Assembly: GCF_030684315.1 (NCBI RefSeq)
Contig: NC_081391.1
Location: forward strand, 15,291,342-15,355,341
Direction of reading: 5' to 3'
Source of the DNA: Stegostoma tigrinum
Lineage: Eukaryota
DNA: 64,000 nucleotides
The translations under genes were made by a program, and so were the position numbers. The first letter of the stretch is position 1. The number at the start of each line of letters is the position of its first letter. The notes under the pieces are model-generated. The model was given only the letters and a program-made list of their open reading frames with translations, was not told the origin of the DNA and made no database searches. Below, in pieces: positions 10,716-63,000 of this stretch.

Positions 10716-13027
10716 TAAGCCAGGTGGTAAAAGAATGCACAATCGGCAGCATAATTGTGCAAGACCTGGCTGAGGTAAAAATCAGAGACTCTTAAGTTGC
10801 TACAAACAAATTCTAGCCACCACTATGCAGCTAATACCCTACAACTATTTCACAACGATGGCCTTGTAGTCCTCTGACATGTTGGTTGACTCAATGCCAC
10901 ACTAGCCAATGCACTGGTTTATTCCCAGAGTTACTAGGACCACAAACTAATAAATTATTCTGCTTCTTCTTTACTTACAGCGTCAAGACATTAATGGACC
11001 ACCTTACTCCTGTAACTCAATACAAAATCTAATCCCAAACCACCAGACGCTGGGTGATGACAATTTTCAATCTAATTGCAGCTTGCCCTCGACAGGTCCC
11101 CATTAGTGGGATGGCTGAGGTCAGCAGCAGCAGAAGCAGAATGAGCAGTGAGGGAGTGGGTTACTACAAACTTAAATCCTTTCATTCCTCAGTAACCCAT
11201 TACACAGTGATCTACCTTGATGTTGCATGCATTAGGTGAGAGCTGGGGTTTTAAGTGCATGTCTCATAATTGAACACCCCAAATGCAACCTCAGCTGCAG
11301 ATCACATGCACAAGAGCCACTTGAGGAAACTTTTGAAGCATCAACATCTTCAGGGCAAAAGGAGGGGTCTAAGGGGACAAAGTGTTTCTAAATGATCTAG
11401 AGTTGGGTTTATAAGAGTCAAATTCTCTTAGCTAACTGGTACAGTCCAGAAACAGGATTTCTTAAGGCCATAGGTCTCGTGTTCACACACTGTCCAGTGT
11501 AGTCTCGTGCAAATTGTTAAACAGTTGAAAACTCCAAACAACGAATCCAAGCAATGAGGTCTCCTGCAAAGAACATGCAATACGATCCATGCGTTCACAT
11601 TTTCGCACTAACGGGGGTATGTCACTGTGGCGAACAATCTTATGAAATGCTTTCAAATAAGCTAACACAAAGTAAAACCCTTTTCATTAATTTTGCCTTC
11701 CCGTTTCCTGTTCTGTAGCTTTGGCGTAATCAATCTGAATAAGTATATGAATTTCTCTTACCCAGTATCTGTTGCTGCCTTCAATAAATATAAAACATCA
11801 CAGTAAACAACCAGTTAAATTATAAAGTTAGTACAACCAGTTCTTAACCAACAAGCTTAGCAAGTTGACTTGAAATCAGTATCTTCACTGCTTTAAGTGC
11901 AACTTGAGCATCAAGAAAGACAGGAGGGACGGTAGGAAGGTGTGGCAAGACTTGCACTTAAATTCATGGCATATTAATTTTTTTCTTTCATAGACTTAAA
12001 CTATTTGAATCACTTTGCATCATTAGCAGTCCGCACATAGGGCAGATTTGCACAAATCAGAAATGGCAGTGTGAGAAAAAAACTGAAATCTGGAAACAAA
12101 GTCGGAAAATGCAGGTAATAGAATCAAGTATTTTAGCATCTTGAAAGGGAAAAATACTAGGTAATAATAGGGGGGAAAATAGGTTCATATTTCAAAAGCC
12201 CACCCTTTATTACAACTATATTTTCCAACATTTTGTGCCAGTAATACGTTAGGAAGAATGTAATATAGTATTGACCAAAAACTGCAATTGTTGTCAAAAG
12301 ATCACATTTTGAAAAGTTGGTCTACTAGCAATAGAGAAAAATTCATCTAAAAAAAAAGTGCATTATGTTGTTAATGGCAACATGAAGCCACTTAACATGA
12401 AAACAATCAAAACTAAACTACTAATTTTAAACAAAGGAAAAAAGGTGACTTGCAATACCTCTGAAATCTTCAGAGTAATGATAAAGCCTAAAGTATTATC
12501 AGTTATGAGATTTCTCAGTACAATCAGCCAGTTTATTTTCTGTATTTTCAACTGAAGGCGTACAATCTTGCCAAGAGTTGCATTGACAATGAACTGATTT
12601 GTTGTACCTTTGTCTCAGCCTGGCTCGTGTTGGTGGAGATAGCGGTGGACAATTGGACCAACAAGAGCACCACAGCTGAATTCAATCTGATCCTCATCTA
12701 ATATTTGTGCACACTCCTACCAAGCAGAAGTGGCAACACTGACTGGCATTAGTTAGAAGTAACAATACTCCCAGCTCTGGTCAGTCCAGCTTACCATAAA
12801 AAATAGCAGTAAATTGAGCATGCATATCAACAAATTCCTAAAGGTAACAGGACAAAAGGAGGTGGTGGTTAAAAAAAGTACATGGGTTACTTGAGTTAGT
12901 AAGCAGAAAAATGGATATTAAAAGCAGAAATCATGCTCAAACTACTGAATCACGAGAAAGGTAGCATAGAACTTTAAAAGGACATAAAAACAGAAGTTGC
13001 TGGAAACGTTCTGCAGGTGTGGTAGTA

Positions 13028-13260
13028 GCGAGTTTTGAGAAGATTTGTAGCTCAGGTTGAGTTTCTGGATGAGAGTTTGCTCGCTGAGCTGGAAGGTTAG
13101 TTTTCAGACGTTTCGTCACCATTCTAGGTAACATCATCAGTGAGCCTCCGATGAAGCGCTGGTGTTGCGTCCCGTTTTCTATTTATCTGGTTAGGTTTCC
13201 TTGGGTTGGTGATGTCATTTCCTGTTCTTTTTCTCAGTTCTGAGCGAGCAAACTCACATC
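13028..13260 (-). mobile_element. Penelope-like pLTR fragment with a short inverted 5' piece
   Basis: Nearly identical to 24946-25155. Flanked by TSD caggt(g/c)tggtagta at 13014-13027 and 13261-13274. Confidence 0.85.
13104..13143 (-). ncRNA. Minimal type I hammerhead ribozyme motif in a Penelope pLTR
   Basis: Minus strand reads uca-CUGAUGA-u-GUUACC(uagaau)GGUGAC-GAAA-CG-UC-uga: intact core, 6-bp stem II, palindromic ACGU stem III, 3-bp stem I. Confidence 0.7.
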
Positions 13261-13997: not shown

Positions 13998-16018
13998 TTT
14001 TAAAAAAGATAAACTTCAATAAAACAATGGTTTGGCTTCAACTGGATTCAAGTCCAATTGTACGTGCCACACTTTTGAGAGAGATGTAAACGGAATTAGT
14101 AAGGGCATAGAAAGTATGAACAAGATTAGTTTCACAGTTGAGGAACATCAATTACGTAGAAAGGTTTGAAAAGTTAGGACTGTTCTCCTTGGAGAAGAAT
14201 GAAAGCAGATTTCATACAGTTACTTAAATTATGAAGGGTCTGGACAGAGTAGTAGGACCTGGTGCAAGGATTAAGAACCAGAGGGAACAGTACTAATGTC
14301 AACGGCAAAAGCAGCAATGGGAACAGGAAGAAAACTTTTCACGGACTCCAAATCCTGGAATTCTCTTCCTAATGGCATTGCAGGGCAAACCACTGCAGGT
14401 GGGCAGCAGTGCTTCACGAAGGCAGCCCATTGCCAAGGGCAACTAGAGACGGTTAATAAATGCTGGCCAGCCAACAATGCTCACATTTCACAAATGAATA
14501 AAACAAAACATAGCAAGTGAATAGGATCTGGAACGCACTAACTGAAAGTATAGGGGAGTCACATGAGGATTTCAAACGGGAATTGAACAACTATTTGAGA
14601 AGAAAATATTTCAGAGTTGCAGGGACAAGGCAGCGTAGCAGTACCTGGTAAACTACATCTTCAGAGAACCAACGCACACAATGAGACAAATGGTGTCCTT
14701 GTGTGTTGTAACCATTCTACACTTACATAAACTTTACATATCACTGGTTACGCCTCAACTAGAAAATTATAGACAATCCTTTCATATTGCCACATTTCAG
14801 AAAGCTGTAAAGCCTTAGATGGGGTATAGAGGAATTTTTCAAGGATAAACATCATCAGTTCGAGGGGAGGTTTGATAGCTTCAGCCTATTCTTTAGCAAA
14901 GAAGCAAGGTTACGAGGTGGTCTAACACAACTTTTCAAGATGAGGGGAGGTTTTCATAGAAAGTAGAAAAAAAAATTCCTCAAGTACTCCACTGTATGAG
15001 TCATTGAGCAGAAGTCAAAGATTTTAAGTGATTGTGAAAAGATCAAAAAGTGTTTTGAGCTACGAAGCAGAACTTACCTAAAAGGTGGAAGATGATTCCG
15101 TCAATATTTTAAAACATTTAGGCAAGTACTTGAGGGTAAGGAATTTTTAAATTTACAGACAAAAGCAGTGAAATGGGACTATGCTGACTGCACCTTTACA
15201 GTACCAACACACACAGGATGGGCTGCAGGTTCTCTTACGTTCCAAAGTTTCCATGATTCTATCAACTGTCAAAGCTGGAATTTCTGAGATCTATATCACT
15301 TATGAGGTACAGCTTTTATGAAAAGGAGCTATATGCAATGTGTTAATCTCTTTATTTCCTTTTTTTTCCTCAAAGGAATAATAATGAACAAATCACCAAA
15401 GTAACATATTTCCTATCCTGTAGGACTGTTTCGGGAACCTCCAGAAAGTAAAGCTCAATCTGTCACATACTGCTGAGGTGTACGTGAGAGAGAAAAAAGA
15501 ATTGAGATAATAAAGTGGTATTTTTATAGGCAATCAAGAATCATCTTTTTGGTTTGGACCTGAAGAGGGCATTTACTGTCCAACTGACACAGGAAGATAA
15601 TGAGCCATGAGGCTGAACCAGTTCTCTTTTCATCAAGGAATATCATTTCACAGTTGTCAGTTGCCTGCCAGTATATTGATCCAAGTGACTGATTTAGAGT
15701 TCAACTGTTGAATGCCATCAGGTACACAAAGATCTACATTGTCCTCACTGATTGCCGAAACAGGAGTATTATGCAGGTGGAAGTACTGAAAAGAAACCTG
15801 GAACAGAAATACTAAGTGACATGCTATCCTTTTAAGACGTGCACAGAACAGCTGCTATCCACATTGAGTCCACCTAATTTAAGTATTGTTGTTTCAATTG
15901 TAGTCACATAAACGCATCTGAAGTGTAACTACAAGCATGAGGGCTCTTGTGGTGCATTAGTGCTATCCCTACCTCTGAGCCAGAAACCCTGGTTCTTGAG
16001 CCATTTGCTCCAGAGGTG

Positions 16019-16956
16019 AGAGTGATAATGGGAAATGCAGATGCTGGAGAATCCAAGATAACAAAGCATGGAGCTGGATGAACACAGCAGGCCAAGCAGC
16101 ATCTCAGGAGCACAAAAGCTGATGTTTTGGGCCTAGACCCTTCAGAGAGGGGTCAGGGAGAGGGAACTGGAGTAAATAGGGAGAGAGGGGGAGGCGGACC
16201 GAAGATGGAGAGAAAAGAAGATAGGTAGAGAGGAGAGTATAGGTGAGGCGGTAGGGAGGGGATAGGTCAGTCAAGGGAAGACGGACAGGTCAGGGAGGCG
16301 GGATGAGGTGGTAGGTAGGAAATGGAGGTGCGGCTTGAGGTGAGAGGAAGGGATGGGTGAGAGGAAGAACAGGTTATGGAAGCGGAGACAGGCTGGGCTG
16401 GTTTTGTGATGCAGTGGGGAGAGGGGAAGAACTGGGCTGGTTTTGGGATGCAGTGGGGGAGGGGGAGATTTTGAAGCTTGTGAAGTCCACATTGATATCA
16501 TTGGGCTGCAGGGTTCCCAAGCGGAATATGAGTTGCTGTTCTTGCAACCTTCAGGTGGCATCATTGTGGCACTGCAGGAGGCCCATGATGGACATGTCGT
16601 CTGAGGAATGGGAGGGGGAGTTAAAATGGTTCGCGACTGGGAGGTGCAGTTGTTTGCTGCGACCAAGCGGAGGTGTTCTGCAAAGCGGTCCCCAAGCCTC
16701 CGCTTGGTTTCTCCATTGTAGAGGAGGCCACACCGGGTACAATGGATGCAATATACCACATTGGCAGATGAGCAGGTGAACATCTGTTTGATATGGAAGG
16801 TCATCTTGGGGCCTGGGATGGGGGTGAGGGAGGTGGTGTGGGGGCAAGTGTAGCACTTCCTGCGGTTGCTAGGGAAGGTTTCGGGTGTGGTGGGGTTGGA
16901 GGGGAGTGTGGAGCGGACAAGGGAGTTGCGGAGAGAGTGGTGCATCTCAGGAGTGT
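16019..16956 (-). mobile_element. 5'-truncated Penelope-like retroelement (GIY-YIG endonuclease end plus pLTR) inserted into a SINE-like repeat
   Basis: ORF 16271-16945 has C-x2-C..H, NVVYCIHCTRCGLLYNGETKRRLGDRFAEH (GIY-YIG). TSD cagaggtg at 16011-16018 and 16957-16964. Confidence 0.9.
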
Positions 16957-18123
16957 CAGAGGTGTGTCATGTCATCTTGGAACAGGTTGTTAGAAAATGT
17001 AATAACCGTGAGGCTGAATGGTCCGAGATTCTGGATTCAGGTTTTAGTCTCAATGGAGGAACTGTTTAAAGCCTGCTGCTGCCAGAGCGAGCAATTTACT
17101 TTCTCTGAGACAGCACTTGTTCTGCAGTGATAATGTCCCTACCTTTTGGCCAAAAGGCCTGGATGCAAGTCCCACCTGCTCTAGAAAAATGTTATAGCAT
17201 GTCTCATTGGGTTAATTACAAAGAAAAAAGGGAGGGAGAAAGGAATCGGAAAAATTTTGATATAGTGAAATGAGTAGTGAGAGAGGGGGTTTTTCCACAG
17301 TACGGACCAGAAGGGCTGAATGAACAGAACCTAGACTCTAAATTATAATTAGTTCTTCAAACATCCATTTCTCCTGAAGGGTGGTAGAAATCATTGACAG
17401 GAATAATGATTCCAGAAACTGCAATTATAATTATGTAGTACCATCACCACAGACTTGGTTTGTTTTGTTTAAACATATAAAAATTCCACCCAATAATCTT
17501 GTTGTGAGATCAGATATTCTGAATCAAATGTCAACTTCAGGAATTTGTGGGGGGGTGGTGGGGTGATTGGAGTGATTGGAAAGAACAAGAAATACTAGTT
17601 GTCTTGCAAGCTTGAAAATGGTGCATTCCACAATTACAGTCAGCTGCACACCGAGGGCAGTTTAGTTTTCATTTGAACCTTTTGGAGTGGATTTTCTATT
17701 TTTATTTCCAAAAACACAGTTTAGCTTCTAACTAATCTGCAACTCATCTGCAGCAAAAGGGAACAGAAATGGTTAGCACCATAGCATATTTAGGAATTCT
17801 GTGTCATTCTTATAACTTCATGCAGATTCCTTTCATAAATTATAAGTGGCCTGTTGTAATATATTAATTACCTGTTCCTGGAGCCTGTATCAATGAACAA
17901 AAAGGTATTTGTTTTAGTTGCTGTAGATGAAGGGTACGAAGTGAAAAAAAAATCAGCTGGATATGAACAACTTACTGAAAAGGCCACAAACAGGACGACT
18001 GTTTCAAAAAAAAATGTTAAAACACAAATTAGAGAAAAGAAGGGAAAGAAATTAAATTTCAGAAGAGGGAAAGCTAGTTCTAACTCTCCCGACATAAAGG
18101 AAATTGGCTGTCCACCTGTGGGA

Positions 18124-18722
18124 GTGATAATGGGAACTGCAGATGCTGGAGAATCCAAGATAACAAAGTGTGGAGCTGAATGAACACAGCAGGCCAAGCA
18201 GCATCTCAGGAGCACAAAAGCTGACGTTTCGGCCTAGACCCTTCATCACAGAGGGAGATGGGGAGAGGGAACTGGAATAAATAGGGAGAGAGGGGGAGGC
18301 GGACCAAAGATGGAGAGAAAACAAGATAGGTAGAGAGGAGAGTACAGGTGGGGAGGTAGGGAGGGGATAGGTCAGTCCAGGGAAGACGGACAGGTCAAGG
18401 AAGCGGGATGAGGTGGTAGGTAGGAAATGGAGGTGCGGCTTGAGGTGGGAGGAAGGGATGGGTGAGAGGAAGAACATGTTACGGAAACAGACAGGCTGGG
18501 CTGGTTTTGGGATGCAGTGGGGGGAGGGGACGAGCTGGGCTGGTTTTGTGATACAGTGGGGGGAGGGGAAAGAACTGGGCTGGTTTTGGGATGTAGTAGG
18601 GGAAGGGGAGATTTTGAAGCTTGTGAAGTCCACGTTGATACCATTGGGCTGAAGGGTTCCCAAGCAGAATAGGAGTTGGTGTTCCTGCAACCTTTGGGTG
18701 GCATCATTGTGGCACTGCAGGA
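18124..18722 (-). mobile_element. 5'-truncated Penelope-like element
   Basis: GIY-YIG C-terminus (LQEHQLLFCLGTLQPNGINVDF) plus pLTR. 14-bp TSD gtccacctgtggga at 18110-18123 and 18723-18736. Confidence 0.9.
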
Positions 18723-19829
18723 GTCCACCTGTGGGAACCTCATTTGACAGCCGTTCAGTTGCTCCACAAACTCGCTCATGGAAAACATTATTCAGGAATG
18801 CGTTGTCACTAGCCATTTCTAACACTTCTCACAACCACTTCCAACTTCATAAACACACGCATCTTCTCAGGCTGATTAGAGTTGCAGATAAGCCATAACG
18901 TAGGAAAACCGAAGCCCTCCACTCCAATCCCACAAAACAGTGTCATCCTAGTTCACAACTCCTTCATTGAAGTTGGACTAAGCCAGATGGTACACAAACT
19001 CAGCATTGTGCTCAACTCGAGAACTTAGATTCAAATCCTGATTTCCTACAGGTCAGGTAAACCAAGTCTCCCTTCTGTAATATTACCAACTTGAAACCCC
19101 ACCTCTCCTCTAATTTTAAATTATTAACCGTACCTACAGTAGCTTGACATTCAACTGACCTATTCTACAAAGTCTCACCTCCCTTTCTACACTTAAAATC
19201 AAAAAACTGCACAAATTTATAAGTTCCTGTCCAGCCTTGTACAAATCTAGCCCCTCCGGCTTTACGGCTTAGATGATCTGTCACAACTATTTCCAGGCTT
19301 CCTCATTTTAGATTAAAACTGAATTCCCTTGTCATGCCTGACTGGGGTAGCACGTCGGAAATCAAACCCCACAATTCCTGGGGTTATCGCCAGCGTTGCC
19401 ACTAATCTCTGCAGCTGCTCAGACATTCTACACATACCAAATGGTGTGAACAAAGCATCAACACATTGACTTTCACTTTCAAAAGTCGCTGCCATGCATA
19501 CATCTGAAGTCCCTGTGCCAAAAAAAATTGGAGTGAGTAGTAGTTGTCACAAAGAGTCAAAAGATTTTTGAAAATATTCAATTTCCCAATTTACCTGTCT
19601 TTTAGATTCAGATTGACAAAGCATGTTCCAGGTTTCTGTATTTAAGCACTGCTGTCTATAACAATTAAATAAACACTGGAGATAGACAGGCAATTACAAA
19701 CAATTGTCATAAAACTGTAATCATTAAAACTCTAACCCCCTTATAAATAACTTGACACAGATATATGGATAGAAAAAAAATCAGAGTAATAGGCAGAGGG
19801 AAATTAAAAAAAAATAGGAAAGCAGTTCT

Positions 19830-20435
19830 CAGAGATAATGGGAACTGCAGATGCTGGAGAATCTGAGATAAAGCGTGAAGCTGGATGAACACAGCAGGCC
19901 AAGCAGCATCTCAGGAGCACAAAAGCTGATGTTTCGGGCCTAGGCCATTCATCAGAGACGTGCACAGAACAGCTGCTATCCACATTGAGTCCACCTAATT
20001 TAAGTATTGTTGTTTCAATTGAAGTCACATAAACGCATCTGAAGTGTAACTACAAGCATGAGGGCTCTTGTGGTGTATTAGTGCTATCCCTACCTCTGAG
20101 CCAGAAACCCTGGTTCTTGAGCCATTTGCTCCAGAGGTGAGAGTGATAATGGGAAATGCAGATGCTGGAGAATCCAAGATAACAAAGTGTGGAGCTGGAT
20201 GAACACAGCAGGCCAAGCAGCATCTCAGGAACACAAAAGCTGACATTTCGGGCCTAGACCCTTCAGAGAGGGGGACAGGGAGAGGGAACTGGAGTAAATA
20301 GGGAGAGAGGGGGAGGCGGACCGAAGATGGAGAGAAAAGAAAATAGGTAGAGAGGAGAGTATAGGTGAGGAGGTAGGGAGGGGATAGGTCAGTCCAGGGA
20401 AGACAGACAGGTCAAGGTGGTGGGATGAGGTTAGT
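19830..20435 (-). mobile_element. Composite Penelope insertion: pLTR piece, ~185 bp transduced flank from 15835-16020, and a second pLTR piece
   Basis: 19956-20430 is near-identical to 15835-16310. The whole unit is bounded by TSD gaaagcagttct at 19818-19829 and 20436-20447. Confidence 0.85.
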
Positions 20436-20638
20436 GAAAGCAGTTCTGTAGTCTCTGTACACAGGACTTGCCAAGATGATTCCCTGTTCTGATAACTCAT
20501 TGGGTAGCTAACTAGAAATGAAACATCATGATACTTGGAGTCATCACAAAAGTTAAAGCTTTTAATTGAAATACACAATTCCCAAACTACTACATTTTCA
20601 GACCCAAACAGATAAAAGAAATACTTCATTACAGATAA

Positions 20639-20736
20639 CAAAGTGTGAAGCTGGATGAACACAGCAGGCCAAGCAGCATCTCAGGAGTACAAAAGCTGAC
20701 GTTTCGGGCCTAGACCCTTCGGAAGTTCCCATTATC
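20639..20736. mobile_element. Tiny Penelope pLTR insertion with an inverted terminus
   Basis: Minus-strand pLTR piece followed by a plus-strand agttcccattatc end. 16-bp TSD acttcattacagataa at 20623-20638 and 20737-20752. Confidence 0.8.
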
Positions 20737-21949
20737 ACTTCATTACAGATAATTTCGTTCTAACTATCTGTAAACAATTAAGTAGATTCTACAATGTAAA
20801 ACATTAGGTCTCTTGTAAATTTCTACACACAGGTACAAACATAGATGGGGTGGGGGGGGGGGGGGGAGGAGGAATCAGCAAAGGGAAAATTGTAGAAAAA
20901 CGGTTCCATAGTCTTTGATCACAAAATCTGGTGGTTGGTTTTTACTGATATGAAGATTCATCCTCCAAACCTTTCCACTGTTTTGCAAGAGACAAGGAGC
21001 AAAAGGTTCACTTAAGGGGGCTCATATTAATCCAATTCAAAGTCACAACCTGTACCATCTGAAGGTAAAGATAAGCCAGTTTCTTCAGGTTTAAGGAGAG
21101 AACTGCATGTTTTTGCTAGCTTTGCAGACCTGTTAGCTTCTCTTCTAGTTTGACTAGCTTCTCTTTATCCTGTTCACAGTCCAAGCTGTTCAACCACCTG
21201 ACAAGTTGCTGCCAAGAGAATTGTTCTCATTGATAACTGATCTGTTTGCATGTTGCCGGAACCCACACTTACACAAACAGGGTTCACAAGTTATTTACTT
21301 TCAGAACATGCAGCAATCCTTGTAAATCACTGGTTTTCAAAACAGCTCTTTCTCATTTCAGTCTGCAATTTTAAAAAGCATAAAAAGTAATGGTCTTAAC
21401 ACTGATCAGAATGCTGCTTCTTGATCTTCCTTCTGTGGATGCTTTCAATCATTTGCTAGAGGCATAGGGTGACTTGTCTCTTACTTATTAAGTCACAGCT
21501 TACAGCAACTTCTGAACGAAGGATGACTGGTTTTCTTCTTAGAAGTAATTTGTACTGTAGGGAACAGAGACAGCCTCTCAGTCTGTGGAAATCTGACAAC
21601 TTTACACCATCTTGATCACATTAGCAAGCTGTTCAGCTAACCTGGAAACAACCACAAATGTTGGCAGGCAGAAGACTTTTGTTATCAGCAATTCATCACT
21701 AGCTAAGAACCAATCAGCCACCTGTTGCAGGCTGAATCTTCACAACCTTTGGCTGCAGCTCATCTGCAAAAAATCTACTTGAACCAGCAGCTATATAAAC
21801 AGCACTTACGTATTTCAGGTTACTTGTTTTTAAAAACTGCAGTAATCCTTCAGCAATCTTTGGCTTCTAAAACACTGTCTTTACACCTTCCTAAAACAAT
21901 TTATTTTCTATCATTCAGTTCTTTATTTCACGTATGAAGCATGCAGCAA

Positions 21950-24945: not shown

Positions 24946-25483
24946 AGCGAGTTTTGAGAAGATTTGTAGCTCAGGTTGAGGTTCTGGATGTGAGTTTGCT
25001 TGCTGAGCTGGAAGGTTAGTTTTCAGATGTTTCGTCACCATTCTAGGTAACATCTTCAGTGAGCCTTCAACGAAGCACTGGTGTTATGTCCCGCTTTCTA
25101 TTTATCTGGTTAGGTTTCCTTGGGTTGGTGATGTCATTTCCTGTTCTTTTTCTCAGGGGATGGTAGATTGGCTCCAAATCAATGTGTTTGTTGATGGAGT
25201 TCCGGTTGGAATGCCATGCTTCCAGGAATTCTCGTGCATGTCTCTGTTTGGCTTGTCCTAGGATGGATGTGTTGTCCCAATCAAAGTGGTGTCCTTCCTT
25301 ATCTGTATGTAAGGATACGAGTGATAGTGGGTCATGTCGTTTTGTGGCTCGTTGATGTTCATGTATCCTGGTGGCTAGCTTCCTGCCAGTTTGTCCAATG
25401 TAGTGTTTGTCACAGTTCTTGCAAGGTATTTTGTAGATGACGTTCATTTTATTTGTTGTCTGTATAGGGTCTTTTAAGTTCAT
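24946..25483 (-). mobile_element. 5'-truncated Penelope-like element (second family) with GIY-YIG domain and hammerhead-bearing pLTR
   Basis: ORF 25067-25483 reads NVIYKIPCKNCDKHYIGQTGRKLATRIHEH...REFLEAWHS..SIN. HHR-like core at 25023-25062. Confidence 0.9.
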
Positions 25484-31980: not shown

Positions 31981-34900
31981 TGTTTGCCCACCAAGTTTTC
32001 TCTGCCAAGAGAAGCTATCACCTGTTCTAATCACACATCAGTTGATGCAAAATCTACCAAAACAAAGAAAGTATGGTGAAGCCAAAAGTCAAACCATCTT
32101 GCAGCAGCAGCTCTATCTACTTTATCAGCCAGGAAAGCAAGTGCTGAACTGGCTTGTAACATTTCTAGGTTTCCCATTATCTTTATGAACTTGTCAGCTG
32201 AGTTGATGGATGCAAATACCTAGTTTCCATTTGAGCTTGTCCAAAGCTGGCATTCTGCACCAAAGAAAAATCAGACTAGTGTCACCAGTTATAAACTGCA
32301 CATAAAAGTATTGATTGAGGACACAATCTAAACTTGTAAGGACAAAATAAAACTGCTTGGTAAATGGCTCATAGTACTGTGAAAGTGCCCTATCTCTGAG
32401 ACAGGAAGCCCAGGTTCGGGTCCCACCTGTGCCAGAGGTGCGCATCAATATTTCTGAATAGGATGATTGGAAAATATCTAATATTATTTGATGCCTTTCA
32501 TATTCAAGCAGACAATTCATAAAAATTACACATCCACCATCATTAAAAACCTCATGATAACACTGATTTTCTCAAACTGTTGCTTTCTCAAAGGGGACAG
32601 ATATATACAAAATAATTTCAACACAAATATTCAAAGCACGTCAACTAATAAGCTCAAGTCTCCCCTCGCACTTCTTCATCTTACCCCATCAACATATCTT
32701 TCGGTACCTTTCTCCCTCTTGTAGTGCCTGGCTTCTTGAAATGAACTGACACTATTCACTTGCTTATGGCAGCAAGTTCCATGCTACTTTTGAATATCTA
32801 CAAATTCATGAAACCAATCTGTAGGCTTTCTGGTTCTCTTCCACACGAGGCATTTATCTACCTGTTACTCCAAATCCATAATCTCCACCTCCCTCATTGA
32901 TGGCACAGCCTCCTATCCCTCAGTTTGTGACACGTCTCCCCAGTCACCCCTCTCTCAGTCTGTGACTCATATCCTCTGTCACTCCTCTGTGACCCAATGC
33001 TTAACTCTCCTCAGTGACATACAACCCCCACAACTTCTCTCAGTCTATGGCCCAGCCCTTTCCTCACAGCTTTGCCCATGACCTGTCCTCAGTTGTAACT
33101 CAGTTCTTTACCTTGTCAAGCTCTCAATGAGCAAATAATAACTATAGCATTTCTTCAGGATCCTGATCATATGTTGCTCTATCAATCCATTAAACAAGTC
33201 AGAGGGCTCTCCCTCCAAATTGATTACCCAACTCCTCTTGATCCCTTGTTGAAAATCATCCTCACTTGTGACTAATATTCTCCACGGCCCCCCTCTCTCT
33301 ATTCATTACCTATTTCCAAGATGATGTATTGATTCCTGGCTCCTTCCTGAGGATTTTATCAACCACCCTACAAAACCTTCCCTTGGACCATGGAAAGGAT
33401 TCACGTAACCCTTTGTCACCACCACATTCCCCTTCTTTAGGATTTGAACACTCACACTATGATTAATCATTAACCCCATATCACTCAGAAAGGTACACTC
33501 ACTGTGACTTAGTAACACTCAGCAACCTTGCTACTTTGCCTGTACACTTCCCATCCTCAGTGCATGACTTACTCAAAGCATTTTCCTCAATCCCCTCCTC
33601 TGACTAAGGTACTTCCTTTTGAAGTCCCTCTTTTCTCTCTGGCCCTGCCTCTCTGGCCCAAAATATCACCAAGGTTCATTTCTTCACTGAGAATTTTCAC
33701 CCTTCCTGAGCCTAACCCTTGTGTCACTCATGGAGACCCTTTCAATGGCTTCTTCTCCTCCTCACAAACAGACAACAGCCTATGACCTCATCACCAATTG
33801 GGCCTCCCTATCACTGAAGCCCCACGCATCAATGTAGCCCCCTATCCTAACTCTTAAGCAGATTGGCCCAGATTCTCATGCAGATCATTCCCTCCTTGTA
33901 GTACCTTCACACAAAGATCCATTAACTTCACTGATGCATCAGACCTGAGTTTCTCCACTCAGAGAGCCTTGCCTTTCATGGAGGCATCTCCCATCTCTTA
34001 TCCACAACAAAAAGACCCAAGCTGTTGTTAGAAAGGTGCACTCAACTATGGTCCCTCATCTTTCTCTACCTGGCTCTACAACTCAGGCTCCTCCAAGCAC
34101 TAAGGCATATTTCTCTCTGTGGTCCCTCCCATTCACTTCCTCTGTAACTTCTCCCTCTTCTGGACAGCTGTCTTCCACCTCTCTTTGACCTATAGAGTTG
34201 TACAGCATGAAAACAGAACTCCTCCAGACTCCCCACCCACTTTACTTCCTTTGTTCTTCATCCACTTTTGCACATTCCTCACTTCTCACTCCTCTACCTG
34301 CTCCCTCCTCTTGCTCTTTTCCTGAATCTACACATCAACTCCTCAAACTCTTCCCAGCTCATTTTACCACCTACAGCCTCCCAAGTGCAGCCCCTCTTCT
34401 CATTCACTGGCCTCACCCCACTCACTAACCCCCACCTGCTCTTCTCTGACTCCTTGTCCATTCTTTGGCCCTTCTGCCATATCCTGCATTCTCCTCTTCT
34501 TCCCTTCCCACTTCTGCGCAGCCTACAGAGAAACTATTTGTCTTTAAAACTGTGGACCACAAGAAAATAGAACATTTAAATAAAAAGGCATTTACCAGAA
34601 TGGCTGCACAATTTCACAGCAACAGATTTGATACCTACTGTGCACTGTTTTTGTGGCTATGCGTTCGTGCAATATACACACGATCAAGAGCTGAGAAGCA
34701 AATTAAGCCAATTGGTTCTCAGCTAACTGAACAGGTTGAAATGGAGAACAAGTTAGAGACACAGACTGCAAGACATTCAAGACTGCATTTGTTCTGCCTG
34801 TTCTCTGTACTAAAACTCAGTTAGTCATAAGAAAACCAGTTACTTTTCCCGCAGCAGGTGCTGGACAGTTGTGACCTTTCAATTGATAACTCGGACATTT

Positions 34901-49444: not shown

Positions 49445-50678
49445 CTGGAATTCAAACCAAACCAAAACAAAAAGCAGTCTGTTAGTTACCAGCCATGAAT
49501 CCAATTGGACAAGAGGCCATTCATCCCACTGTGCTTGTGCTGATCATTTTGAAAGAGCTTCCCAATTTACAAAACTCAGCCCTGCAGTCCCGTCTCTCTT
49601 TCTTCTTTTAAGATTCTTCCTAAGACATGCTTTTCTGATGAAACCTTTGCTCCTAATATCTTATGAAAGCTGTCAAACTATTAACTGGTTATCAACCATG
49701 TAAAATACCTTGGGATATTTTACTCCATGAAATGTGCTGCATAAATGCAACATGTTATGCCTGTCCTTTTCCACTGATTCCCCCCACAGCCATAGAGTTA
49801 TAGAAATGTACAGCACAGAAACAGATCCTTCAGTCCAACTCACCCGTGCCAACCAGATATCCTAAATTAATCTAGCCCCGTTTGTCAGCATTTGGCCCAT
49901 ATCCTTCTAAATCCTTCCTATTCATGTACCCATTCCAGAAGCCTTTTAAATGTTGTAATTGCACCAGCTTTCCCCACCTTCTCTGGCAGCTCATTTCATA
50001 CATGCACCACCCTCTGCTTGAAAAAGTTGGTTCCTTTCAAATACCTGCCCCTCTCACCTTTCTATGCCCTCTAGTTTTGGACTTCCCTAACCTGGGGAAA
50101 AGTCTTTTGATATTCACCCTTTCAATGTTCCTCATGATTTTATAATTTTTGTAAGGTCACCCCTCAGCCTCTGACATTCCTCAAAATTGTTTCCCTGATA
50201 TTGCTGAAAAGAGAGATGTGTTGCCTAAATGCTTGATCATTTGCTTATCAGGACAAATGCAAGAATGCCAAATGTCAAATAAACACAACTTACACTCGTC
50301 AAATAAAGGATGCCAATTCTTTGGCAGTTGAACTACGATTGGCCAAAGCATTGTCATGGAGAAAGCAACAGCAAATTATATTTCTTCCTATGCCACCAGG
50401 AAATTTAAAAAAAAAGCAAGGTTTGCAACACACTCCTTTAGTTTGTGAATTATTTCATATGTCGGAACCCACACTCTGTAAACAGCAGGCTGTTTTACTG
50501 TGATGGCCTCACACCTGTTAATATTCTGATTTAGTGCCAATTTTCTAGGCAGGGTAACCAGTGACCAAAGTGGTGTAGGAGTGTGGCCCATCAGAGAATC
50601 AGGTGCAGGACCTTCTCCCTTCCCCAGTTGAACACCACACTCGTACTCACAAAACTAAGAAGGGAGCTCTACAGGGTA

Positions 50679-51326
50679 ATAAAATGTGAGGCTGGATGAA
50701 CACAGCAGGCCAAGCAGCATCTCAGGAGCACAAAAGCTGACGTTTCGGGCCTAGACCCTTCATCAGAGAGGGGGATGGGGGGAGGGAACTGGAATAAATA
50801 GGGAGAGAGGGGGAGGCGGACCGAAGATGGAGAGTAAAGAAGATAGGTGGAGAGGGTGTAGGTGGGGAGGTAGGGAGGGGATAGGTCAGTCCAGGGAAGA
50901 CGGACAGGTCAAGGAGGTGGGATGAGGTTAGTAGGTAGCTGGGGGTGCGGCTTGGGGTGGGAGGAAGGGATGGGTGAGAGGAAGAACCGGTTAGGTTCCT
51001 TCCTCCCACCCCAAGCCGCACCCCCAGCTACCTACTAACCTCATCCCACCTCCTTGACCTGTCCGTCTTCCCTGGACTGACCTATCCCCTCCCTACCTCC
51101 CCACCTACACCCTCTCCACCTATCTTCTTTACTCTCCATCTTCGGTCCGCCTCCCCCTCTCTCCCTATTTATTCCAGTTCCCTCCCCCCATCCCCCTCTC
51201 TGATGAAGGGTCTAGGCCCGAAACGTCAGCTTTTGTGCTCCTGAGATGCTGCTTGGCCTGCTGTGTTCATCCAGCCTCACATTTTATTATCTTGGAATCT
51301 CCAGCATCTGCAGTTCCCATTATCTC
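50679..51326. mobile_element. Young Penelope pLTR insertion in inverted (head-to-head) form, within the last intron of the adrenomedullin gene
   Basis: Arms 50677-50968 and 50998-51289 are reverse complements. 14-bp TSD agctctacagggta at 50665-50678 and 51327-51340. Confidence 0.95.
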
Positions 51327-55662: not shown

Positions 55663-55827
55663 AGATAACAAGATGTAGTGCTGGATGAACGCAGCAGCAT
55701 CAGAGGAGCAGGAAGGCTGACGTTTCGGTCCCAGTCCTGCTCCTCAGATGCTGCTTGGCCTGCTGTGTTCGTCCAGCTCTACACCTTGTCATCTCAGATT
55801 TTACAGCATCTGCAGTTCCTACTACCT
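55663..55827. mobile_element. Short palindromic Penelope pLTR insertion
   Basis: 16-bp TSD ctgcactttcattgtg at 55647-55662 and 55828-55843; inverted pLTR ends. Confidence 0.85.
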
Positions 55828-56814
55828 CTGCACTTTCATTGTGTCTTTCATGGCCATTTGTCTTCCTAAATTGCTTCACAGCCAATGAAGTACGTTTAAA
55901 GTATTATCTTTCAGGAAACACAACAGCTAAGCTTGGGAATAGCAGATCCCATCAACATCCACAGGATTATAAGGCATTGACTGAGAGATACTTTTCTTTA
56001 ACCAAGACTCTAGTGGTTAATACCCCAGCTCTGCCATGAAATAATACCCATGATATTATCTATGTTCCATCTGTGTGTGTATAAGGGGACCTTAGTTTAA
56101 ATCTCATTTGAAGGAGGTTAGATAAGGGCAGATGAAAATAGGCATTAGCCAGGGAAAAACAAGCATCACAAATTGAAGTAGATAATGCAAGCAAATGACA
56201 GACATGCAGATGATGGACTATACCCATTCTGCCTTAATACCTCTAAATCTTGCACAAGCAAAGATGTTCTTGGAACCACATTGCTACACTGTAACCATTA
56301 GAGGGAGCCACAGAACTGTGTAGAAAGACCTTTTAGGGTTCTCTGGTGCAGTTGTGTCTCTTCCTGTAGGCCAGGAATGCCAGGTTTAAGCTTCACCAGC
56401 TCTAGAGGATTATAATTATATTTCTGAAAAGGTCGACTTAACACTATCTAGAATGACAGCCTGAAACAAAAATGCTGGAGAAACTCAGCAGATCCGGCAG
56501 CAATTGTGGAGAGCAAAACAGAGTTAACATTTCAAGTCCAGTATGACTGTTATTCAAAACTCGAATGACTGCTTGCACTGCCTGACATGGAATATGGATT
56601 CTCAAGGCAGTGAACATTCACAATGTCTTTTACACTCAGTGATGGCTGAATGTGCACAGTATACACCTCCAGTATCAATAGTACTTCTCCGGCAACTGAG
56701 CACACACAGCACGTATCTCGCTACGAAATTTTCAAGGATCTAACAGGCAACCGGCATAGATATTGGAAATGTTTAACCCATCGTACAAGGAGAGTGGAAG
56801 CTGGAATTAACACA

Positions 56815-59848: not shown

Positions 59849-60051
59849 ACATCAGAGATAATAGGAACTGCTGATGCTGGAGAATCCAAGACAGCAAGGT
59901 GTAGAGCTAGATGAACCAAGCAGGCCAAGCGGCATCTTAGGAGCAGGAAAGCTGACATTTTGGGCTAATGAAGGGTCTAGGCCTGAAACGTCAGCTTTCC
60001 TGCTCCTAAGATGCTGCTTGGCCTGCTGTGTTCATCCAGCTCTTCACCTCG
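59849..60051. mobile_element. Short palindromic Penelope pLTR insertion
   Basis: TSD ttgacacctta at 59838-59848 and 60052-60062; two opposed pLTR ends. Confidence 0.8.
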
Positions 60052-63000
60052 TTGACACCTTACCATATCATGGATCACGAAAAGAGTTCGATTCCGATCC
60101 AGAAACCCTGCTGGATAACTTGGATGTGTGTGCATGTTAGTTGAGGACAGAATCAGTTTCGGCAGAGCCCCAATCAGGTTAACTAATCTTTCTGCTGATT
60201 TTCTTTTAACATCTAGATTTGATTATTTCAACTCCCTGCCGTCCACCTCCACTTTCCAACTTGATCCAAAACTCTGATGCCCCATTATCCACACGCTTCC
60301 TGCAAAAGCTCAACTCAGCCTACTTTATGAATCCTTCCATGGTGTCACTCCCTCCCTTGTCATGCCTCCAGCCCTTGGAGATCTCTGCATCCCTCCAATT
60401 CTAGCCTTTTCCTCCACATTCTAAATATAATTTTCTTTCATTTATTCTTGTGTGAGATGCGGACATTGCTGGCAAAGTTAGCATTTGTTGCAATCACGAA
60501 TTGCCCCTGAACTGAATGATGTGCCAGGGCCATTTCAGAGTGCTGTTAGGAGTCGACCACATTGTTGTTGGTCTGGAGTCACATGTAGGCCAGACAACAG
60601 ATTTGCTTCCTAACGGACATAGTGAACCAATTTTATTTTAAAACAACAATTGATAATAGTTATCACTGATGACTCAATATTAATTTAGTTTAAGTTCCCA
60701 CAAGCCATGTGGGGTTTGATCTCATGATACAAGTCTGGGTAACTGGATTATTAGGCCAGTGGCAATACCAGTATATTACCGACCTACCAGTCACGGTGTG
60801 CATTGTTTGCATTTGGACTACTAGTCCTGCATACAGGAATCCCTCCTCCAAGCCTTCTCTCTCCTCTCCCTTAAAATGCTCCTGAAAACCATCTTCTTTG
60901 ACCGAACCTGAGGTTATTCACCCCAATATCTCCCTACGTGACTCAGTGTCAAATGTTGTTTCATAACTGTGCTTCTGATGCATCCCTGGGATGTTAAAAG
61001 TAACACATTGGTACTCATGTTATTGCAGACACCATCAACAAGAGTTGGTTGAAATAGGAATTAAAATCATGTGGGAGGGATGGAATCCCTTTGTTGGGAA
61101 ATGAATGACAAGAATAGTGAAACTTTTTGATGATTGAAGAGTTCGCGAGTTATTGGACAGTTAAACAGCTGCAGTAACATCCTCAATAAGAGCTTACAGT
61201 TATAGACGTGGGTGCTGAATCCCGAGTTGGCTGATGACTGATATACTTGAATATTTATTTTATCCAGCAGCCCTTACATCTACAAACCAATGAGGTCTGG
61301 CTTTAAGCATGCACCAGCTCATAAAACAGCTATGGGTGATTCATTAATCTTCATATAGATAACTCAGTTTGCACAAAGCAGAATATTCTTGGCTTCAGAA
61401 ACATCGGCAGTGCAGACTCTCTCAGCCAGTGCTTCCACTGTCTTCAGTGCCCCTGGGCTAGGGACGGGTTAAAAACTGAGCTCGTAGTTACCGTTTTTGA
61501 TTGCAAACCAGTGAGTAATGGCTATGTGCGTGCCCATTCATGCTTCAGCTCGACAGCGAAGTATTCCACAACCGCGCACTGCATCCACACCCACTACCTC
61601 CACCACCACCACCCGGTGGCTCAGTAATCAATAGCTAGATTGAGCTTGGGTGCAAGATGCCTTGTAGTTGAATAGCCAGACTGCCACCAACTAAACCAGC
61701 CCATAATGCGGCAGACTGACGGTTCTGGTTTCGGTCCCTAGTGCACGTGTTCTCCTTGGTGTCAGAGCTGAACACCGTTAGACCAGCACTCACGCACATT
61801 CACAGTGTAGCTCAGGTCACTGACCTGAAGCTGGACCGTAGCTGCTGCTCCCCCTCCCTCACATACTTGGCATTGAGGCAAATTCTACTCCTACCCCGAC
61901 TCCAACTCCGGCTGAGATCGTTCAGACCTGACTGGAGATTAAATTCGGGGCACGTACTAATATACAAATTAGGAACAGAAGTAGGCCATTCAGCCCCTTG
62001 AGCCTGCTCTGGCAGTCAATAAAATCATTGCTGATCTGAATTCTCCGTAGTTCTGCCTGCCCCCAATAATCTTGCACTCCATTCTCTATACCACTAATGT
62101 CTTAAAAAGGTTCAAAGACTCAGTTTCCACAATATTTTGAGGAAGAGGATTCAAAAGATGCATGACCCTCTGTGAGAAAATGAAATTCTCCTCAACTCTG
62201 TTTTAAAAGATCAACCCTTATTTTGAAACCCCTGGATTTAGATTCTCCCACGGGAAGAAACAGCCTGCCCACATCCACCCTGTCAAGACCCCACTAGGAT
62301 TTTTTACATTTTCAATCAAGTGGCCTCTTACTCTAAACTCCAGAGGGCAGTCCCTGCCCTTACTACCCTGAAACCCCATCTGTAGCCGCCTGTATTGTTA
62401 CCTAACAAGTCATATTGAGAAGCATCCATAAAGGGACAGTACAGTGCAAGTGGTAGTGCTTGGCAACAAAGCTTTTTTCTTGATTTATTTTCATTAAAGT
62501 ATTTCAAGCCAGGGTGGAAGCAATTCATTCTCAATCCTGGGAGACTGCCGGATAAGAAATATATTCCTGCCAGGCAAATGAAGTAATTTTGACAGGCAAA
62601 ATTATAAGCAATTGCACAGGTTAATGAATGCAGGTTTCTGATGTGTTGGGCTACCTGATCTAATGCAAATTGGAAGCAAGGTGAGAGAATTGGCCTCTCT
62701 GCGATGGAGAACTTGAGAAAATATAACTCACGAGGGATGAATTGCAATGCATTCAAAGTTAAATAATCGCCTAACCCTCATAGCAAGCAGGATGGTCCAT
62801 GGAATGATTTGCATTTATCTAGCATTGTTCGCACAGACCTAATGCCTCAAAGCACTTTACAGCCAGTGAGGTACTTTGTGAAGTAAGGTAAATCACCATA
62901 ATCCCAGAGGACCATATATCATATCTCTCATTAGAGAGAGAGAGAGATGACTGGTGGTGGTTTAACCTGAGGGTCACCATGCCTCAGGCAAAGGGGAGAG

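Follow-up and report, generated by a model that had tools for sequence, protein, structure and literature searches.

Host DNA from a neighbouring locus inside a Penelope-like insertion of a shark genome

An insertion near 20 kb in the window, by which we mean the whole 64,000-nucleotide stretch of shark DNA analyzed here, carries host DNA and pLTR sequence copied from the surroundings of a Penelope-like element at 16 kb. The insert is bounded by one TSD, occupies a site that is empty in a relative, has an identified donor and contains a junction with microhomology. Our preferred explanation, which we hold to be just about probable, is that repair of a break after insertion patched the donor flank and some 230 bp of pLTR into a Penelope-like copy; we infer every step of this course. 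The features to which we refer are the following:

15835–16020, no strand assigned: donor flank, the original of the captured DNA (self-comparison; organism B contig)
16021–16941, minus strand: donor, a Penelope-like element truncated at its 5' end that retains disrupted coding sequence for a GIY-YIG endonuclease (TSD, Pfam, translation)
19818–19829, no strand assigned: left TSD copy, 12 bp (exact match to 20436–20447)
19830–19958, minus strand: left pLTR piece, representing the 3' terminus of a Penelope-like element (family columns 2–133), apparently of non-donor type (pairwise alignment)
19928–19955, minus strand: decayed hammerhead motif within the left pLTR piece (motif scan)
19956–19958, no strand assigned: AGA, 3-bp microhomology at the joint of left piece and captured flank (pairwise alignment)
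19956–20141, no strand assigned: captured host flank, a copy of 15835–16020 (184 of 186 positions identical)
20142–20370, minus strand: pLTR and 3' UTR from the donor (shared donor states; hammerhead core broken by a common 3-bp loss)
20371–20435, minus strand: right tip, likely non-donor, the end at which the inserted or resident element is 5'-truncated (mismatch counts, order and permutation tests)
20436–20447, no strand assigned: right TSD copy (the single copy remaining at the empty site of organism B)

Structure of the insert and its donor

By comparing the window with itself (blastn), we found that 19956–20431 duplicates 15835–16309 at an offset of 4121, with 96.4% identity over 476 columns, 17 of which are mismatched. 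The sequence-only reading had described a duplication of about 185 bp of flank plus the pLTR of the 16-kb element, and this was borne out. Donor and captured segment lie 4121 bp apart in the same orientation, and the flank sits on the 3' side of the donor element with its orientation kept. A single exact 12-bp TSD, GAAAGCAGTTCT, brackets 19830–20435; as had been claimed, it encloses the whole insert, and 19818 and 20436 are its only positions on either strand of the window. Regarding the second pLTR piece, which had been placed at 19830–19955 and said to start at CTGATGA, the minus-strand core does start at 19955, but the piece extends to 19958 and overlaps the flank by AGA, the end of the one and the start of the other being alike. 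The internal junction is 3 nt away from the core, and a 3-bp microhomology has by itself a chance of about 1 in 64. The structure, a duplication within one TSD, is real.

The 16-kb copy is flanked by a TSD of its own, CAGAGGTG, at 16011 and 16957, and it interrupts a repeat, also carried in the captured flank, which we take to be a SINE. This repeat continues beyond the 16-kb element and has no continuation at 20 kb, where the left TSD copy of the donor is nevertheless present within the insert. Because the insert holds this TSD copy and the interrupted repeat without its resumption, the 16-kb copy is the donor, as the sequence-only reading had proposed. Both private variants named in that reading (A at 16035/20156 and a 3-bp loss at 16144/20265) were found in donor and copy, and neither in the left piece or in other copies covering those columns. 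The 18-kb and 20.6-kb copies were discarded as donors since they lack the shared variants. The reverse direction, with the 20-kb copy as the source of the 16-kb one, was ruled out by the donor TSD, the resumption of the repeat and the contigs of organism B. Finally, a simple unequal crossover would have duplicated or deleted the whole 4.1 kb, which was not observed.

The captured flank is made up of around 100 bp of non-repeat DNA, around 85 bp of the SINE-like repeat and the left TSD copy of the donor. Using 15700–16020 as query, we found no third copy of the flank elsewhere in the window at E ≤ 0.01; its repeat has weak in-window matches at 32388 and 17113.

We compared 18760–21400 with contigs from four of 23 runs (X1, X5, X6 and X8), of which X1 is from the same species. 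In all three runs of organism B, a single contig covers 18762–19813 and 20436–20563 with 3 letters between them, showing 78–80 substitutions over 18762–19813 (around 7.5% divergence). The prediction that a relative would have the site empty, with one TSD copy, was therefore confirmed in 3/3 runs, and insertion and capture must both postdate the split from organism B. Each of these runs also gave one contig over 19960–20092 at about single-copy depth, with 10.9, 14.1 and 17.8 against comparison depths of 9.5, 14.1 and 15.4 (contig depth summed inside the repeat was not taken as copy number). Hence, the flank is ancestral host DNA and not part of the element, and the suspicion that it might be a high-copy part of an element was dispelled by its single copy in organism B together with the lack of a third copy in the window. 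In runs X5 and X6, the contig over the donor flank extends for 762 further letters that lie off the 20-kb site.

One could argue that the duplication is an artefact of assembly. Among the same-species contigs listed, none crosses the internal junction at 19956–19958 or the right junction, and the X1 contig at the left junction extends 25 letters into the insert, the bridging threshold being 31 letters. However, the two copies differ at 17 of 476 columns, while X1 contigs on unique DNA show 0–1 substitutions in 658–1095 letters; the X1 donor contig differs from the 20-kb copy at 3 of 209 letters, and the exact TSD bounds the insert and matches the empty site of organism B. We consider a false local duplication highly improbable.

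The captured flank starts at an AG after a pyrimidine run, and we considered whether it is a host exon. This reading was discarded: none of four nearby open frames had a Pfam match and a crude exon scan gave noise. The flank differs from organism B at 14 of 133 positions, compared with 79 of 1052 in the background (p 0.23), so that its divergence gives no sign of constraint. It contains no recognisable gene, and what was captured is a non-coding 186-bp duplication without evident function. On the plus strand, 15424–15477 and 15530–15610 are short open frames with splice-like edges and no Pfam match, the second of which ends in a stop.

The Penelope-like family and its ends

The repeat family is a Penelope-like element. 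The donor frame reads VVYCIHCTRCG..YNGET, a GIY-YIG motif with two internal cysteines, one of which is lost in the 40-kb copy (VVYC..RTRCG..YIGET). Two of the five frames scanned matched the GIY-YIG model of Pfam with E values of 0.0043 and 0.073 (the latter for the donor), both below the curated cut-off, and Atlas feature matches to GIY-YIG/HTH_animal clusters reached 0.96–0.97. The longest open frame (320 aa) gave no reverse transcriptase match in Pfam, the window copies all being 5'-truncated, and no match in a PDB sequence search. The endonuclease motif agrees with the criterion for EN+ elements of the Penelope/Poseidon type in excerpts of PMC8557442; other traits of this type that we observed are inverted copies, TSDs and family ends spaced in line with an optional 30–40 bp tail. 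The TSDs measure 8–16 bp at eight of the nine other family insertions (nine of ten in all), and 5 bp at the 40-kb copy. In X1, family 3' ends pile up at 19829 (1452 contigs) and 20177 (2614 contigs), around 35 nt apart, resembling anole Poseidon, for which excerpts of PMC11167929 describe a tail and a pair of start sites of the RT. A metagenome scan with a 30-nt pLTR motif found 0 loci.

A minimal hammerhead motif (CTGATGA-stem-GAAAC-GTC) is predicted, as a sequence motif, in four copies; the left piece and the 58-kb copy hold decayed versions of it. The motif scan found no intact core in the donor or in the 20-kb copy, from both of which the shared 3-bp deletion has removed it. Rfam gave 0 matches in 15000–21500 at E ≤ 1, and the fold was not seen in single-strand (monomer) folds; minimal hammerheads are thought to be active as dimers, according to excerpts of PMC4209133. 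On the minus strand of 15781–16021, none of 12 poly(A)-signal hexamers was present. There is no poly(A) tract at the flank junction, and the other Penelope copies viewed are also tail-less. Nor does the captured DNA hold an intron whose loss could mark an RNA origin.

Several further observations concern the ends of this family. At the 5' junction of the donor (16942–16956), a 12-nt pLTR fragment and 3 further bases precede the TSD, which suggests a short template jump. Four insertions are inverted (20633–20740, 50677–51326, 55663–55830 and 59852–60053), each within an 11–16 bp TSD, and in all four the outer 3' start (columns 1–4) is used by one arm and the inner 3' start (columns 36–42) by its partner. 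Such a pattern would agree with priming at two RT start sites from the two strands of the target. X1 also contains joints from 19829–19832 to 20177, 20178, 20633 or 20634, with 29–64 contigs each, linking outer to inner start on opposite strands. Their short side, of no more than 42 letters, is about as long as the tail, and they are possibly copies with an inverted tail. Among the 12 other family arms, six (at 20.6, 55.7, 55.8, 58.7, 59.9 and 60.0 kb) end or invert at columns 90–135, at or near the hammerhead motif, making this zone a possible truncation hotspot. Apart from the family, 13027–13237 and 24946–25156 form an unrelated pair of 211-bp direct copies with 94% identity, a repeat with further matches in the window.

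Composition of the insert

To compare informative sites, we used an alignment of 13 family arms. Over 20142–20368, the copy has the donor states at 16023, 16035, 16172, 16227 and 16246 and the deletion at 16144; those at 16023 and 16227 are also present in the 18-kb copy. Donor-type sequence is supported only as far as 20368. In the last 65 bp, the copy has none of the three donor-private bases (16249, 16273 and 16293), and at its very end it agrees with four of the five other copies spanning the site and not with the donor. Counting mismatching columns among the 65 of 20371–20435, we obtained 10 for the donor, 8 for the 18-kb copy, 3 for the 43-kb copy and 2 each for the 40-kb copy and both 51-kb arms. 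CpG sites were excluded from the two tests of this pattern. On 11 non-CpG sites, an order test gave p 0.015, or 0.03 when either end is allowed, and a breakpoint permutation gave p 0.04; leaving out the final 4 bases raises the order test to 0.033 and the permutation to 0.08. Of these four tip bases, three (TAG) are also found directly left of the left TSD, so the tip bases could be target-derived, with one extra base.

The left piece differs from the donor at 19 of 131 columns and from the 43-kb copy at 11 of 132, and it shares with the latter the diagnostic bases at columns 5, 36 and 37. Like the left piece, the right tip agrees with the 43-kb type, the subfamily assignment being based on five copies spanning the tip. 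These comparisons give moderate support to a template other than the donor for left piece and right tip, which look as though both came from the ends of a single ordinary copy of around 300 bp. Into it, some 415 bp of donor flank and pLTR look to have been set, with homology at the right joint and the 3-bp microhomology at the left one. We thus regard the insert as a likely three-part mosaic with a non-donor right tip. Of the single switch envisaged by the sequence-only reading, the junction near the hammerhead core holds; donor sequence running up to the right TSD probably does not, with moderate support from a tip with 0/3 donor-private substitutions.

Regarding age, we counted four private non-CpG changes in the 194 bp of left piece plus tip and five to six in the 828 bp of the duplicated part. 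The rates of 2.1% versus 0.6–0.7% (p 0.07–0.10) form a weak age trend, with p 0.40–0.47 after dropping two junction-proximal substitutions. Close to the junction, within 15 bp of the end of the left piece, the substitutions at 19944 and 19947 are absent from the other aligned copies, and each equals the base that the donor flank has in that register (15823 and 15826); identity across the final 20 nt thereby rises from 8 to 10. This unexplained match may be due to chance or to patchy templating at the junction.

Break repair or template switching

In the course that we favor, an ordinary 5'-truncated copy of around 300 bp would have inserted and created the TSD, and would later have been broken near the hammerhead core. 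The right end would then have invaded the homologous 16-kb copy in the same orientation, on the same chromatid or a misaligned sister, with around 100 bp being converted to donor type and copying passing the end of the donor pLTR to run 186 bp beyond homology. Finally, the new strand would have been rejoined to the left end through the 3-bp microhomology. The capture itself would need neither RNA nor a transposon enzyme. Break repair is supported by a right tip with 0/3 donor-private bases and two to three rather than ten mismatches next to a middle with six donor states, and by a left piece and tip that are both of the 43-kb type, as halves of one copy would be. A homologous junction paired with one of microhomology is the product described for long-tract gene conversion, and a donor as close as 4.1 kb is in line with the preference of gap filling for sources in cis. 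A flank end lacking both poly(A) tract and poly(A) signal, and a donor that is truncated and has no intact hammerhead core, also speak for repair, and the higher private change in left piece and tip leans weakly to the same side. On the other hand, organism B has no plain copy without the flank, the predicted intermediate, its site being empty in 3/3 runs; the inferred resident, at around 2% divergence, could postdate the split at around 7.5%. Break repair is further weakened by the moderate mosaic signal (permutation p 0.08 without the tip bases), by an age trend that disappears without the two junction substitutions, by subfamilies defined from five tip-spanning copies, and by the recurrent rotifer host spacers, which their authors tie to the machinery of the element in excerpts of PMC3846280. 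Besides, a junction at the hammerhead core, with six of 12 arms ending nearby, fits a stop of the RT better than a random break, which we estimate would fall in the hammerhead zone of a 300-bp copy around 13% of the time.

Template switching on RNA within a single retrotransposition event, an amended form of the earlier model, is possible, if on the unlikely side. Here, the RT would start at the normal 3' start of an active-element RNA, stall at the hammerhead, use the 3-nt microhomology to jump to an RNA that reads through from the 16-kb copy, copy flank and pLTR and probably return by homology to the active-element RNA for the last 65 bases. This model is suited by the junction 3 nt from CTGATGA, by the arms ending in that zone and by the fact that organism B shows no plain copy. 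The left piece begins where 3' ends of the family usually lie (contig ends pile up at 19829 and 20177), as predicted by internal initiation (excerpts of PMC11167929). The stray 12-nt pLTR fragment at the donor 5' junction implies that template jumps seem to occur in the family, and excerpts of PMC3846280 provide a precedent of host DNA between pLTRs within a TSD for which read-through and jumps were proposed. However, the model requires a minus-strand read-through RNA from a truncated copy, and an insertion 4.1 kb from its source is plausible only with a tethered nascent RNA. Hammerhead cleavage was dispensable for insertion in vitro (excerpts of PMC11167929), the flank end has no poly(A) tract or signal, and since the last 65 bp are likely non-donor, a second switch back is probably needed. 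As a specific form of this course, an RT that stalls at the hammerhead, jumps to a tethered read-through RNA of a dead neighbour and jumps back by homology seems doubtful to us. As for the sequence-only proposal of read-through RNA plus a template jump in one insertion, its donor, flank, TSD, empty site and hammerhead-proximal junction stand, but its RNA intermediate and single event are not established. Improbable, in our view, is a switch to a DNA template within one insertion event, the cDNA leaving its RNA at the hammerhead, priming on nearby genomic DNA by microhomology, copying the 186-bp flank into the 16-kb copy and re-annealing to the element RNA or the target end. It would account for locality, for the junction near the hammerhead and for the single TSD without any read-through RNA, and the in-register matches at 19944 and 19947 hint at pairing. 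Yet these substitutions fit break repair equally, a 3-bp match is a weak primer, and landing within 186 bp of a family copy in the same orientation would be a coincidence of around 1–2% by a rough local count. Considering the 4.1-kb distance, the shared orientation and the pair of junctions, DNA break repair fits at least as well as the RNA route.

L1-type 3' transduction duplicates the 3' end of an element and its downstream flank inside a TSD. Unlike it, the 20-kb insert has no poly(A) tail, carries a second pLTR piece 3' of the flank and is local. Since the Penelope RT initiates inside the element RNA (excerpts of PMC11167929), plain read-through transduction is unexpected without a template jump. 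The closest likeness is found in Penelope elements of Adineta vaga. There, excerpts of PMC3846280 report host spacers of 0.9–1.5 kb before the 3' pLTR of Pen1_Av, an NRPS gene framed by Pen3a, an intron-containing gene between pLTRs with an 8-bp TSD, and non-coding captures between solo pLTRs, for which read-through transcripts and template jumps are proposed. As in those cases, unrelated host DNA lies between direct pLTR pieces with one TSD around all. In contrast with them, the shark donor is identified 4.1 kb away, the capture is exactly the 3' flank of that donor, short (186 bp) and gene-free, and the insert is likely a three-part mosaic. Host DNA was captured here as the sequence-only reading held, but this route for shuffling it is not new, the same excerpts describing host spacers between pLTRs in TSDs.

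Capture by gap filling is documented for DNA transposons, just as the pLTR-host-pLTR architecture is already known. Of the single-copy Pack-TIRs in excerpts of PMC8277862, 160 of 281 lie within 15 kb of the parent, mostly less than 5 kb away, with a median microhomology of 2 bp. Their gap filling is independent of transposition, and in primates the outgroup ortholog carries the uncaptured TE in 91 of 97 cases. Our insert likewise combines nearby host DNA in a TSD-bearing TE, a donor at less than 5 kb, short microhomology and a single copy in the window. It differs in its retroelement host, in having one homologous junction, into another family copy, and in an outgroup ortholog (organism B, around 7.5% diverged) without the TE. 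Long-tract gene conversion, whose termination can be non-canonical and microhomology-mediated (excerpts of PMC5104497), shares the homologous start, the overshoot into non-homologous flank and the closure by microhomology. That work, in the same excerpts, concerns kilobase tracts in a reporter assay in cultured mammalian cells; by contrast, the 20-kb insert involves around 415 bp, natural repeats and an apparently fixed germline event. In the literature, with incomplete coverage of subscription papers, we found no Penelope capture reported together with its local donor, and no direct report of shark Penelope transduction, one-sided repair in LINE copies or locally templated L1 insertions.

The rotifer cases have no nearby donor to compare with, while the 20-kb locus offers donor, product, TSD and empty site together, and the pattern at its informative sites suggests that a mosaic makeup is possible in captures of this kind. 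Should the repair model be true, some host segments regarded as mobilised by Penelope would be products of break repair and not of retrotransposition. If the RNA model is true, the hammerhead would be a point of template switching; in the stall-and-jump form, it would be a hotspot at which local host DNA is captured in a single insertion, and this would explain the pLTR-host-pLTR structures of rotifers.
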